IMG/VR virus record: IMGVR_UViG_3300042375_000763
Coordinates: 16,191-80,190 of that record
DNA: 64,000 nt
Direction: 5' to 3' (one strand)
Origin: a virus
The translations under genes and the position numbers were made by a program. The notes below the pieces were generated by a model, which did no database searches, was not told the DNA's origin, and saw nothing but the letters and a program-made list of their open reading frames with translations. Below, piece by piece: positions 31,202 through 52,045 of this stretch. Numbering within the stretch: the stretch's first letter is position 1; each line of letters begins with the position of its first letter.

Positions 31202-31235
31202 AAAAAGGCCCAGGGTTTTATTCCTGGGCCTTTTT
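31202..31235 (-). terminator. Intrinsic terminator of attenuator 1
   Basis: AAAAAGGCCCAGG-loop-CCTGGGCCTTTTT. Confidence 0.85.
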
Positions 31236-31263
31236 GAGATAGAATTTTTATCGAATTTCTATG

Positions 31264-31362
31264 TCAAAACAGCCCACTTCCTCTGCCTATGAGCACTTGG
31301 CGACCAGGATTATTATCCTGTGTCCATTGCGCTGATAATGAGGAGACGTGTAGGGAAGTCAT
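31264..31362 (-). CDS. Leader peptide of tRNA cluster 1 (MTSLHVSSLSAQWTQDNNPGRQVLIGRGSGLF)
   Basis: 32 codons after late promoter TATAAATA (31392-31399) and GAGAG SD; 3' end complementary to the terminator 5' arm. Confidence 0.8.
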   Translation of the reverse strand: MTSLHVSSLSAQWTQDNNPGRQVLIGRGSGLF

Positions 31363-31428
31363 GATACTCTCGGTTGGTTAAATTGTAATTTTATTTATAA
31401 CACGCTTTCGTTGACTTCGTAAAAAAGA

Positions 31429-31815
31429 TCAAACTTTTTCAACTTTTTCAAAATAAAATTTCTTTAGAAGCCATTTTACTTTCATTGGCACCACGAACCA
31501 TTCTTCATACTTTGCCTGTTTCCAAGGCACGGTAGAAACAATCCAAGACGGACCATCGAAGTACAGAATAGTATGCATATCTGCAAGTCCTTTTACTTGT
31601 TGTTTTAGTGTATTCCAACGAATACTTTTTGTAGTCCACAACAGTCTGGCATATTCTTGAACTGAAGGGTGCATGAACTCGTAGTAAAAATCTTTTGCTT
31701 TCTGATTGTCGGCAGTGATATATTCATCGCCGATATCAATTGGTTCTGATTTGAACAATTGCCTTTCTACTCGCATTTGAGTAGGACCTACGATAAGTTT
31801 ATATTTTGGTTTCAT
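31429..31815 (-). CDS. Hypothetical protein
   Basis: ORF track. Confidence 0.55.
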   Translation of the reverse strand: MKPKYKLIVGPTQMRVERQLFKSEPIDIGDEYITADNQKAKDFYYEFMHPSVQEYARLLWTTKSIRWNTLKQQVKGLADMHTILYFDGPSWIVSTVPWKQAKYEEWFVVPMKVKWLLKKFYFEKVEKV

Positions 31816-32231
31816 TTACCAAGTGTCCCAGCATATTTTACAACTAGTGGAATCGAGTCAGTATATGCCTCTTGTTCCCACCAACGGTCATCATATGGAG
31901 TATCCCAGCAGGTGTGAATCCAGTGGTTCAAGTTATCTTTCAGAAATTGTTTCACGTGGATCATTTCATGTGCAATGGTCGTGCACATACAACCGATATC
32001 TCGATCTTTTTCCTTGACGAATACAAGAAATTCATCTTCGGTTACATCAAGACAAAGACCAAGAGTTCCATCATTCATTTCATAGGGAACAATAGTAACT
32101 TTTGCGGGTCTAATATCAAGTTCAACACACAAAAACTGTGCAAACTTTTCAAAAAACTTAGGATAGCTAGTTTCTGCTTTGATAACGGTCATTGGGTCAA
32201 GGTATCCAGATTTTCTTGAATGAAGAACCAA
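31812..32231 (-). CDS. Putative zinc metallopeptidase (HExxH)
   Basis: TIAHEMIHVKQ..WEQEA. Confidence 0.7.
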   Translation of the reverse strand: MVLHSRKSGYLDPMTVIKAETSYPKFFEKFAQFLCVELDIRPAKVTIVPYEMNDGTLGLCLDVTEDEFLVFVKEKDRDIGCMCTTIAHEMIHVKQFLKDNLNHWIHTCWDTPYDDRWWEQEAYTDSIPLVVKYAGTLGK

Positions 32232-32770
32232 ATTTGACGGCGAGTTTGCAGTTGATCTTTGATATACTGCATGTAAATGGTGTTTCGGGTCTTGTTGATG
32301 TTTAGACCTTCGATCCCGACAGTCAACTTGCCGACAATATCAAAGATACGACCCTGAGTCGCATTCTTGATAATGAAATTCGTGATACCTTTGATTCCGG
32401 TGTTGCGGATACTTTTGCCGCGGAAACAACCGGTGACATCATAACCTTCAGCCTCGAGAGTTTCACGAAGTTCACGTGCAAGCCGAAGTGCAGGGTTCAT
32501 ATTCAGGTTTTCAACACGATCGGTTTCCGACCATTCAGAGATACCGGTATTCATCAAGCGAGTCACAAAGGCCGAACCGAACTGATATTCAGTAGAAGGG
32601 TTGTTTGCGGCACCTCGAACTGCATACTTTGCACTGTTATATGCACCGTTCAAGGTTGCAGAGTAGTTCCTCTGACCTTTGTTCGTGAACATATTGTTTA
32701 CAGCAATGTGAGCAAGCTTCAGTCGCTTGTTGCGGTAGATGATGACTTGTTGCAGGTCAAGATTTGTCAT
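32189..32770 (-). CDS. Early hypothetical protein
   Basis: After an early promoter. Confidence 0.6.
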   Translation of the reverse strand: MTNLDLQQVIIYRNKRLKLAHIAVNNMFTNKGQRNYSATLNGAYNSAKYAVRGAANNPSTEYQFGSAFVTRLMNTGISEWSETDRVENLNMNPALRLARELRETLEAEGYDVTGCFRGKSIRNTGIKGITNFIIKNATQGRIFDIVGKLTVGIEGLNINKTRNTIYMQYIKDQLQTRRQIWFFIQENLDTLTQ

Positions 32771-33035
32771 TGGTTCCTCAGTGTTACCTTATAGAATCAG
32801 TATAAACAATTTAAACCTGTTTGTCAACACTAATTTTCAAGTTCTTCCGTTGTAATTTCAAAAATTCTATCGGCACGATATACGATCATACAGTTTTCAT
32901 CCGATATATTTGTGTGAAAAATGACGTGCTGTGGTGCCCATGTGATCTTCCAAAATGGAACTGTCTCAATATATTGCTTTGCAAGAATTGTCGCAGTCGC
33001 ATGATCATCTCGGGCAAGAGTGATATTTGCAAGTT

Positions 33036-33323
33036 TCATTTGGCATATTTCCTGTGATTTTTGATGTTCCATTTTTCAATCGTATATCCATTATCGGTTT
33101 CATCGGTGACAACATGAACTACGGAACCTTTGACTAGAGCTCGACGAGTTTCTTGACCAAAAGGTCCGACAAAGATCAAGTGAGGAAAATGTACATTTTT
33201 GCCACCATGTGCAGGAGTATGGAGTACATATTCAGGATTTTCAATATACTCGAATGTGTGACCACAATAACGCTCGACAAAGGAGCCAGAAATAGAAATA
33301 ACACCGAGAGGCGCGTAAGCCAT
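33036..33323 (-). CDS. Hypothetical protein
   Basis: ORF track, SD GGAG. Confidence 0.5.
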   Translation of the reverse strand: MAYAPLGVISISGSFVERYCGHTFEYIENPEYVLHTPAHGGKNVHFPHLIFVGPFGQETRRALVKGSVVHVVTDETDNGYTIEKWNIKNHRKYAK

Positions 33324-33333
33324 TGTTTTCTCC

Positions 33334-33543
33334 TCAGAGAGTTTCGAGACGGAAGTACCAAGTTTTCAGATTCTGTGAAAACCCGGAATCTGCTCGTTCA
33401 CCGCAATGTCGATATGCTTTTGCAAGACGAAGACAAGCAAGTTCAGAACCAAATGCATATAGTGCACCACCTAGTGATTGAACATCGAGAGTTTCTTTAG
33501 TGTGATTCTCAAATTCAGTCTTTGCACGGTTTATGTTTATCAT
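33334..33543 (-). CDS. Hypothetical protein
   Basis: YAFGSELACLRL motif. Confidence 0.55.
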   Translation of the reverse strand: MININRAKTEFENHTKETLDVQSLGGALYAFGSELACLRLAKAYRHCGERADSGFSQNLKTWYFRLETL

Positions 33544-33888
33544 GCAGTTTCCTCTTCTTCTGCGTCAGTATTATCACCGTCAGGGAAATGAATTGCATAC
33601 CAGTCATGCTCATCGTAGACATCATACTCGTAATCTTCGTTCATCTGGTTTCCTCTACCTTATAGAATCAGTATAAACTATTTAAAAGCATTTGTCAACA
33701 ATATTTTTGTACCATTTACTCTCTTGAGGGTCTATTCCACTGGATAGTTCATGAATATATTGATGAACTGCTACATTCATATGTTTCTCAATAAGGTTTT
33801 CTATATTCAATACATGAGTTGTAAGTCTCATACTTGGGAGCAGTGGAAGTTTTTTGTAGGTAAATGGGTCTCTATAACCTAATTCCAT

Positions 33889-51475: not shown

Positions 51476-51552
51476 TGGTAGCGCATACGGGTTTCGAACC
51501 CGTTTCTCCGCCTTGAAAGGGCGGCGACCTTCGCCAAGAAGTCCAATGCGCC
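51476..51552 (-). tRNA. tRNA-Glu(TTC)
   Basis: Loop CTTTCAA. Confidence 0.9.
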
Positions 51553-51659
51553 ATTATTCAGAAGATACACTGTTCCTTACCCCTATGAAGTTATCGTCGG
51601 ACAACAGATACGCATACCTACTTTTCTATGATGGATTAACCAGTGTATCATCAGAATAA

Positions 51660-51735
51660 TGGTGCAGCCCCGCGGGATCGAACCGCATCCTCTAGTTTTT
51701 CAGACTAGCGTACACACCAGTTATACCAGGGCTAC
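51660..51735 (-). tRNA. tRNA-Phe(GAA)
   Basis: Loop CTGAAAA. Confidence 0.9.
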
Positions 51736-51739
51736 ATTT

Positions 51740-51823
51740 TGGTGGGTCGGGCAGGAATCGAACCTGCCGTGGGTTTCCCCGACGGATTTACAATCCGCTG
51801 CCACACCTTGTGGCATCCGACCC
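51740..51823 (-). tRNA. tRNA-Tyr(GTA)
   Basis: Loop TTGTAAA, long variable arm. Confidence 0.9.
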
Positions 51824-51828
51824 ATATT

Positions 51829-51902
51829 TGGTGTTCCTACGAGGTAACGATCCTCGGTCTCTCGCTTATCAGGCGAATGCTCTACCATTGAGCTATAGGA
51901 AC
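51829..51902 (-). tRNA. tRNA-Ile(GAT)
   Basis: Loop CTGATAA. Confidence 0.88.
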
Positions 51903-51919
51903 CTAAATTGTCAAAGAGC
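51903..51919 (-). promoter_or_regulatory. boxA directly after the attenuator 2 terminator
   Basis: GCTCTTTGACAATTTAG. Confidence 0.7.
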
Positions 51920-51922
51920 AAT

Positions 51923-51956
51923 AAAAAACCCTCCGAGGATTTTTCCAGGAGGGTTC
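51923..51956 (-). terminator. Intrinsic terminator of attenuator 2
   Basis: AACCCTCC..GGAGGGTT followed by a U tract. Confidence 0.85.
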
Positions 51957-51985
51957 TAAAACTATATACTTATTTGCATAAGATA

Positions 51986-52045
51986 TCAGTCTCGGGAACC
52001 CTCCCAAGTCATATATTCCTCAAATTTGCAAATAAAGTAAGTCAT
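51986..52045 (-). CDS. Leader peptide of tRNA cluster 2 (MTYFICKFEEYMTWEGSRD)
   Basis: SD GAGGA; GGAGGGTTC in the ORF complementary to terminator arm GAACCCTCC. Confidence 0.85.
   Translation of the reverse strand: MTYFICKFEEYMTWEGSRD

Follow-up and report, generated by a model that had tools for sequence, protein, structure and literature searches.

Putative leader-peptide attenuators ahead of transfer RNA gene clusters in a phage genome

The DNA analyzed here is a stretch of 64,000 nucleotides (nt), hereafter called the window, which corresponds to positions 16,191 to 80,190 of the virus record IMGVR_UViG_3300042375_000763 in the IMG/VR database. Two clusters of transfer RNA (tRNA) genes in this window are each preceded by a short open reading frame (ORF) whose codons are drawn from those read by the tRNAs of the adjoining cluster. 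We consider it likely that both elements are ribosome-mediated leader-peptide attenuators placed before tRNA genes, with sensor codons that list the tRNA species encoded downstream. This reading is supported by in-silico switching of the leaders, by a conserved reading frame, and by co-variation of leader and tRNA content among relatives that were found without reference to the codons. From these observations we infer that the leaders are transcribed and translated, that they control readthrough in practice, and that some cause of tRNA depletion engages them.

Leader codons mirror the adjoining tRNA clusters

Cluster 2 (50811-51902; minus strand, as are all leader and cluster features described below) encodes tRNAs for Ile (anticodon gat), Tyr, Phe, Glu, Lys (ctt and ttt), Met, and Cys. 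Its upstream region begins with an early promoter of the sigma-70 type (52142-52170; TTGACA, 17 nt, TATATT) that belongs to a family repeated throughout the window. Next comes the motif TATAAATA (52133-52140), a match to the T4 late-promoter consensus, followed by a Shine-Dalgarno sequence (AGAGGA, 52056-52051, 5 nt ahead of the ATG and with the promoter approximately 90 nt upstream). Leader ORF 2 (51986-52045; 19 codons plus a stop) is then followed by a small hairpin, an intrinsic terminator, and a 17-nt motif that leads directly into the gene for tRNA-Ile. The 5′ untranslated region carries an additional hairpin (GGATGA-TACAGCAA...TCATCC; 52072-52121) that is conserved in the related loci L082, L102, and L103. 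The encoded peptide is MTYFICKFEEYMTWEGSRD, in which codons 3 to 12 (52039-52010) read YFICKFEEYM. These are exactly the seven amino acids of cluster 2, all of them covered, as a first-pass annotation of this DNA had pointed out.

Cluster 1 (15549-30905) is larger, with 27 tRNAs recognized by ARAGORN and 3 found only by Rfam, and with ORFs and 13 early promoters interspersed. It serves Thr, Arg, Gly, Leu, Ser, Asn, Asp, Ala, Gln, Val, Pro, His, and Trp, and includes two tRNAs with a CAT anticodon. The Trp (cca) tRNA, at 27552-27623, was detected solely by Rfam and by ARAGORN at a low threshold. Upstream of this cluster, the TATAAATA motif (31392-31399) is followed by leader ORF 1 (31264-31362; 32 codons plus a stop, with a weaker ribosome-binding site, GAGAG), a hairpin, and a terminator with 13 base pairs. 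Codons 2 to 31 are confined to T, S, L, H, V, A, Q, W, D, N, P, G, and R plus Ile as ATA, with no K, E, Y, C, or internal M. The same annotation had described leader 1 as restricted to the amino acids left over by cluster 2, and this description holds exactly for codons 2 to 31; the sole "wrong" codon, Phe-32 (TTT), lies beyond them and inside the antiterminator arm. It had also called Lys and Glu abundant in the proteins of this phage, where we find them at 7.8% and 6.8%, respectively.

The two upstream regions are not built alike. The first-pass annotation had placed a promoter, ORF, hairpin, and terminator at the head of each cluster, which is correct for leader 2. Leader 1 has no early-type promoter directly upstream, where only the TATAAATA motif (31399-31392) is present, and a promoter of the early family (31166-31194; TTGACA, 17 nt, TATAAC) instead stands past terminator 1 and so bypasses the attenuator. 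Strong promoters of this early family, which reads GTTGACA ... AGAATCAGTATA..T, occur in about 35 copies on the minus strand.

The correspondence between codons and tRNAs was compared with chance by counting, across all six frames of the window, the runs made of cluster-2 codons only and the runs free of them. Among approximately 26,000 runs, YFICKFEEYM is tied for the longest made of cluster-2 codons only and is the sole one to include all seven amino acids. The 30-codon run of leader 1 is tied with one other and exceeded only by low-complexity runs, and it contains the most residue types (14). Given the trinucleotide frequencies of the window, 0.038 runs of the leader-2 type and 0.030 runs of the leader-1 type are expected per whole window, and the joint chance of finding one of each in the 400 nt that precede its own cluster is about 1e-8. 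Comparison of the two leaders with the two tRNA sets gives p = 1.4e-7 by Fisher's exact test. The partition of leader codons according to tRNA content is real and beyond chance.

The terminators are likewise distinctive in their placement. Terminator 2 (51923-51955) consists of AACCCTCC ... GGAGGG followed by six T residues (about -16 kcal/mol), and terminator 1 (31197-31235) consists of the 13-pair stem GGCCCAGG/CCTGGGCC and a T-tract (about -18 kcal/mol). Strong terminators are rare on the minus strand, and between 12 and 54 kb of the window these two are the clearest canonical examples outside coding frames. Another hairpin with a T-tract, at 49456 on the minus strand (-23 kcal/mol), falls inside a metallophosphatase ORF (48766-49530). 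A further candidate explanation for the 3′ end of leader 1, as a decayed tRNA gene, came from a 7-residue match inside an intron-bearing tRNA of the related locus L075. We judged this match to be a chance likeness, and it leaves the codon partition unexplained.

Predicted switching between terminator and antiterminator

The leader transcripts were folded after being cut just before the 3′ arm of the terminator, with 29 nt masked for each ribosome. Three segments upstream of terminator 2 take part in the modeled switch. The first is TTTATTTGCA (52027-52036; region 1), which includes the Phe-Ile-Cys codons. It is complementary to TGCAAATAA (region 2), which forms the spacer hairpin CTTAT-GCAA-ATAAG (51969-51982). 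Between them lies the 5′ arm of the antiterminator, GGGAGGGTT (51997-52005), within codons 14 to 17, where a ribosome positioned at the stop codon would cover it.

When no ribosome is present on leader 2, TTTATTTGCA is predicted to pair with the spacer TGCAAATAA, and in this way it would sequester the switch in an untranslated leader; the arm GGGAGGGTT folds on itself and the terminator is free to form. With the aminoacyl site (A-site) of a ribosome at codon 3, 6, or 9, the arm instead pairs with AACCCTCC through 8 base pairs and an extended stem. A ribosome with its A-site at codon 12, or one at the stop codon, covers the arm, and no antiterminator pairs are formed. In leader 1, the last codons of the ORF and its stop form the antiterminator arm GTGGGCTGTTTTGA (31264-31276), whose partner is the 5′ arm of terminator 1. 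Stalls at codons 3 to 24 permit this antiterminator, and ribosomes at codon 27 onward or at the stop prevent it. Thus, the window presents a short ORF with a start codon and a ribosome-binding site, a terminator between this ORF and the tRNAs, an antiterminator that in the model depends on ribosome position, and regulatory codons that match the product of the operon.

Based on these features, we propose the following sequence of events. RNA polymerase would transcribe a short ORF. Its early codons, which the tRNAs of the cluster behind it read, would act as sensors. If all of them are decoded fast, the ribosome would reach the stop codon and cover the antiterminator arm in the last codons, whereupon the terminator would form and transcription would end before the tRNA genes. 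If the ribosome has to wait at any sensor codon, the arm would be left free to pair with the emerging 5′ arm of the terminator, and polymerase would read on. In leader 2, the helix between the Phe-Ile-Cys codons and the spacer (the 1:2 helix) would cause an untranslated leader to terminate, as in trp. The net effect would be a supply-and-demand feedback on tRNA production, with inputs from 7 amino acids for the switch in leader 2 and from 13 to 14 for that in leader 1.

For leader 1, the attenuator would act only on transcription that arrives from the preceding operon or from the late-type TATAAATA promoter. Because one early promoter is located downstream of terminator 1 and 13 more are located inside cluster 1, this attenuator can modulate transcription from upstream without gating the cluster. 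The earlier account, in which the promoter of each cluster stands ahead of its leader, is therefore not supported for cluster 1. A role late in infection is plausible, in which attenuator 1 adds transcription from upstream. This timing is proposed because TATAAATA, taken as the T4 late consensus, is present before both leaders, and because ATAAATA is retained upstream of the leader in relatives.

Leader codons change with tRNA content in relatives

A search with a degenerate version of the leader-2 peptide returned two contigs. A second search employed a pattern of the three hairpin arms only, which is blind to the sensor codons, and returned 3 loci from viruses and 28 from metagenomes. Twenty of these have a short ORF that runs across the arm. 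Nineteen of the 20 have tRNAs directly downstream and none upstream, and the twentieth ends 177 nt past the terminator. The other 11 matches are unrelated and have no tRNA.

Among these loci, the 19-codon leader recurs unchanged before the same seven-amino-acid set, whose genes stand in three different orders. L078, for example, has Cys, Lys, Ile, Glu, Tyr, Phe, Met, and L106 has Cys, Ile, Tyr, Phe, Met, Glu. Leaders of the L081 type (MKRFICTNEWYMPWEGSQD) still have a single codon for each of K, F, I, C, E, Y, and M and add R, T, N, and W. They head tRNAs for Cys, Trp, Met, Lys, Phe, Ile, Tyr, Glu, Val, and Thr, and this cluster thereby includes the Trp and Thr (ggt) tRNAs that the window places in cluster 1. 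Nine of the 12 sensor codons match a tRNA in this cluster, which is cut by the end of the contig. The leader shared by L104 and L107 is homologous to leader 1 of the window (local alignment z = 5.7) and is joined to arms of the leader-2 type. Its codons are restricted to T, L, V, S, W, P, G, Q, N, and A, it heads Asn, Pro, Met, Trp, and Ser tRNAs, and its terminator is followed by an early-type promoter, as at leader 1 of the window. In L099, a leader with the core IINHIPEHIEIPEP precedes nine tRNAs that serve solely His, Glu, Ile, and Pro, and 13 of its 17 codons match (p = 4e-7).

Binomial tests against the amino acid usage of the phage, conducted for six leader types, yield p values of 6e-4, 7e-4, 4e-7, 0.01, 0.02, and 0.06, and the weakest two derive from contigs that end inside the cluster. 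The comparison of related phages that had been proposed for this DNA therefore bears out the expectation that leader codons change with tRNA content across loci retrieved by their arms only.

The leader-2 family also bears signs of translation. The length of the ORF is constant, the stop codon appears as TGA, TAA, or TAG at the same position, and the Shine-Dalgarno sequence is kept. The leaders of the window and of L081 differ by two synonymous changes and by seven replacements, and the replacements are mostly swaps of two or three bases within a codon that stands beside invariant codons. The high nucleotide conservation of the leader can be attributed to the fact that the invariant codons fall in the 1:2 helix and in the arm. 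Together with the constrained folding and the co-variation with tRNA content, this preserved frame lends support to the original proposal of a ribosome-mediated attenuator whose codons mirror the tRNAs.

Homologs of leader 1 are scarcer. Neither a degenerate leader-1 peptide pattern nor a pattern of leader-1 arms gave matches, and the leader of L104 and L107 is the sole homolog found. A looser leader-1 pattern gave 9 matches, all of which we attribute to chance and none of which has tRNAs. When both leader regions were used in a DNA search of 50,697 phage records, only tRNA matches were returned, and no cultured relative with the leaders was found at that sensitivity.

Several loci deserve mention in their own right. 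The L099 contig carries a thymidylate-synthase-like gene and a gene for the tRNA-His guanylyltransferase Thg1 (4970-5839), the latter beside the His/Glu/Ile/Pro tRNA cluster with a leader rich in those residues. L105 (414-3043) and L095, which are probably cellular, contain a Trp-repressor gene, a leader with tandem Trp codons (..NWWQ..), a terminator, and a tRNA-Trp gene 7 nt farther on, and continue with an unknown gene and a synthetase of the tryptophanyl/tyrosyl (TrpRS/TyrRS) class. This arrangement amounts to a Trp-codon attenuator before a tRNA-Trp gene. The arms pattern also matches classical-looking cellular attenuators, namely a leader with a run of Thr codons (..LTTTTTTTQTTN..) in a Nostocaceae metagenome-assembled genome (MAG; L123, approximately 5200-5400) and an aromatic-rich leader in a Dehalococcoidia MAG (L124), with no tRNAs near either leader.

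A boxA-like element follows the putative attenuator

The 17-nt motif directly after terminator 2, GCTCTTTGACAATTTAG (51903-51919), resembles the boxA of E. coli rRNA operons, which is a NusB/NusE site. Of its 17 positions, 16 match the boxA-plus-spacer sequence of E. coli rrn operons (PMC2724277). A variant, GCTCTTTGAAACTAATTA, occurs at 31125-31142, and further copies occur at 30443-30459, 27941-27957, and 24371-24387. All five such elements in the window lie on the minus strand, and each heads a tRNA unit. The core GCTCTTTA and its spacer are found near the start of an untranslated RNA operon, which is the arrangement expected of an rrn-type boxA, and a boxA-like element also follows the terminator in relatives. 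In L081 (8030-8100) and L102, a conserved stretch of approximately 50 nt (CTAAAGTGGA..CGCGGAACGAGACTGCGAGTAACCACTATAAACAAAC) stands after the terminator where boxA stands in other members.

Polymerases that pass terminator 2 would next meet boxA and might become resistant to termination throughout the untranslated cluster. Placement of boxA past the attenuator makes sense in this regard, because only those polymerases that have cleared the checkpoint would acquire this resistance.

Observations that weigh against attenuation

Seven observations count against the proposal that the two leaders are attenuators keyed to the downstream tRNAs, or limit what the evidence for it can carry. First, the fold model indicates that a stall at Met-12, the last sensor codon of leader 2, and possibly at Tyr-11, would occlude the antiterminator arm instead of freeing it. 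Second, the terminator is the more stable equilibrium fold in most members of the family, even when the arm is free. Because the terminator usually wins at equilibrium, the switch rests on a kinetic, co-transcriptional argument. Known attenuators likewise switch kinetically. Third, attenuator 1 is bypassed by the early promoters that are described above. Fourth, the hairpin arms served as the search key, and so covariation in the arms is uninformative.

The remaining points concern the relatives. The R, N, and P codons of the L081 leader have no matching tRNA within the covered part of the contig. Loci were also collected by way of the metallophosphatase and the RlaP-like gene, and most of these have no tRNAs nearby. 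The closest relatives by a neighboring gene (81% protein identity; L009 to L011 and L027) have tRNAs for Leu and Met only at the syntenic position and lack such a leader, from which it follows that the leader element is not universal. Finally, two metatranscriptome runs contain only contigs of the tRNAs of relatives (90 to 95% likeness), none of which spans a leader. The RNA contig of one relative appears to extend across a T-tract and a boxA-like motif into tRNA-Cys, although contigs of this kind cannot prove transcription.

Alternative explanations

If the leaders are attenuators, their purpose might be an inducible counter-defense, wherein they detect the cleavage or depletion of host tRNAs by anticodon nucleases and turn on phage replacements. 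We regard this as a possible but doubtful purpose. A sensor that reports a shortage of any one of many tRNA species would suit an unpredictable attack, and the window carries a nucleotidyltransferase of the RNA-repair-type RlaP family, a transfer-messenger RNA (tmRNA), and a tRNA set for the full 20 amino acids. The unusual long variable arms on several of the tRNAs could also serve to evade nucleases. However, no sequence feature ties the switch to a nuclease, and the same design would suit a simple feedback on codon demand in an AT-rich phage (G+C content, 38%) in which the cluster-2 set largely reads AT-rich codons. Moreover, the tRNAs are already driven unconditionally by early promoters.

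It is also reasonable to consider whether the conserved element acts in trans as a small RNA or a micropeptide, as has been seen for rnTrpL of Sinorhizobium, such that its linkage to tRNAs is secondary. The leader-2 ORF is 100% identical in nucleotide sequence between the window and L078, and the tRNAs (e.g., tRNA-Ile) look far more diverged by eye, which suggests that the constraint on the ORF exceeds what codon identity would need. There is also precedent (PMC6614838) for liberated attenuator RNAs that have trans functions. Nevertheless, the 1:2 helix and the arms account for much of the constraint on the nucleotides, and the variable positions change by swaps of whole codons that track the tRNA set. 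Such a role, which we consider unlikely, would add to attenuation rather than replace it.

Least tenable, and very improbable in our estimation, is the idea that the ORFs and hairpins are merely the ends of upstream units with ordinary insulating terminators and that the codon match is a coincidence or a by-product of base composition: terminator 1 is indeed followed by its own promoter, as at an operon boundary, and leader 1 appears by eye to be richer in G+C than the genome, which alone would reduce AT-rich codons, but the chance of the pair is as low as calculated above, the match recurs in independent lineages, where it shifts with the tRNA content, leader 2 has its own nearby promoter and no gene to terminate, and in both leaders the antiterminator arm sits exactly where a terminating ribosome would cover it.

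Comparison with known regulatory systems

Attenuation by leader peptides is familiar from enterobacteria, with hisL, pheL, trpL, and leuL as examples and with multivalent forms such as thrL (Thr, Ile) and ilvL (Ile, Leu, Val). According to our model, the phage elements would share with these leaders a short ORF after a promoter, codons related to the product of the operon, mutually exclusive terminator and antiterminator structures, and termination that is favored by a ribosome at the stop codon. Leader 2 further appears to follow trp in its four-segment logic, under which termination would occur when the leader is untranslated. In contrast to the enterobacterial leaders, the phage elements are borne by a virus, are followed by a boxA-like element, and regulate tRNAs rather than biosynthetic enzymes. 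Because the regulated genes are themselves tRNAs, the sensor would read the product of its own operon directly. In addition, the phage sensors list 7 or 13 to 14 amino acids, mostly once or twice each, whereas the enterobacterial leaders have runs of one to three.

The Rfam models for known leaders give matches below their gathering thresholds. Leader 2 scores 22.9 bits with His_leader (threshold 49) and 17.7 bits with Phe_leader (threshold 55), and leader 1 scores 20.6 bits with Thr_leader (threshold 55). Among the relatives, L079 reaches 37 bits with His_leader (E = 0.0025; threshold 49).

T-box riboswitches similarly couple tRNA status to a choice between terminator and antiterminator before genes for translation supply. 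They differ in that a T-box binds uncharged tRNA directly, has no ORF, and responds to one tRNA species, whereas the phage leaders would read many. No Rfam match to a T-box was listed at E ≤ 1 across 10 to 53 kb of the window, nor at E ≤ 10 in the two leader regions. As for boxA, the candidate elements described here stand in phage tRNA units instead of rRNA operons, and the copy after terminator 2 lies past a putative attenuator.

Phage tRNA genes are usually treated as constitutively expressed cargo that suits codon usage or makes up for tRNAs cleaved by host defenses. A full-text search of the literature found no paper on leader-peptide control of tRNA genes or of phage tRNA clusters, and such control is apparently unpublished. 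If our reading is correct, phages regulate their tRNA supply by feedback, and leader-peptide attenuation, which is known for amino acid operons and a few others, extends to tRNA genes. A single leader would poll up to 13 to 14 amino acids at once, as opposed to one to three. Leader codons would also provide a read-out, at the sequence level, of which tRNAs are treated as one regulatory unit, as illustrated by the seven-amino-acid set that stays together in three gene orders. The elements are small and portable, which makes them testable in vitro, and they could serve as compact sensors of tRNA availability.

A broader scenario can be offered only tentatively, and we are inclined to doubt it as a whole. 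Phage tRNA islands might be inducible, with leaders that list the tRNA species of the island and act as many-input sensors of decoding failure. A host anticodon nuclease or a codon shortage would then trigger late or upstream readthrough that is protected by boxA and that replenishes exactly the affected block of tRNAs. Under this scenario, the phenomenon would be a widespread and undescribed part of the contest between phages and hosts over tRNAs.

Source genome and tRNA gene inventory

The IMG/VR record is 80 kb in length, with a completeness estimate of 40%, and the phage is present in lake-water metagenomes that span several years. The topoisomerase II large subunit shares 48% identity with its counterpart in the Vibrio phage nt-1/KVP40 group, and the window also encodes topoisomerase II subunit A, thymidine kinase, the RlaP-type nucleotidyltransferase, and a glycosyltransferase. 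By its sequence, the source reads as an uncultured and distant T4-like lake phage.

ARAGORN reports 35 tRNAs and one tmRNA in the window, every one of them on the minus strand. The three tRNAs with a CAT anticodon are not separable by sequence into Met, initiator, and Ile-ATA types. The cluster-2 Met tRNA and both Lys tRNAs score under the Rfam threshold for tRNA. Long and partly paired variable arms occur on tRNAs that normally have short variable loops, namely the two Lys tRNAs (51286-51467) and the Cys tRNA (50811-50892). L099 is similar, with long variable arms on its His, Glu, and Ile tRNAs (2168-2348 and 2827-2910 of that contig).

Before cluster 1, a tRNA-like element (30922-31000) has a 7-bp acceptor stem, a T-loop with GGTTCGAATCC, and an irregular anticodon arm, and it is the first gene past the promoter in several clusters. 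It is kept in L081 (8150-8230), L110, and L111. ARAGORN assigns this element a 4-base anticodon or an intron. L110 and L111 emerged from a search anchored on this element, which in those loci is preceded by a promoter or by other tRNAs rather than by a leader.

Within cluster 1, a tRNA with a CTA anticodon, which reads the TAG amber stop, is located at 20401-20476. Two Rfam tRNA matches that ARAGORN missed are located at 21841-21943 and 26574-26646. In one of them, approximately 30 nt are inserted within the anticodon region. The anticodon loop of the other is atypical; ARAGORN at a low threshold calls it GAA (Phe), and this would mean that cluster 1 contains a Phe-like tRNA. The tmRNA (10220-10604) is a two-piece, permuted form that scores 105 bits with the Rfam alpha_tmRNA model, and it is located downstream of cluster 1, past a strong terminator at approximately 11988.

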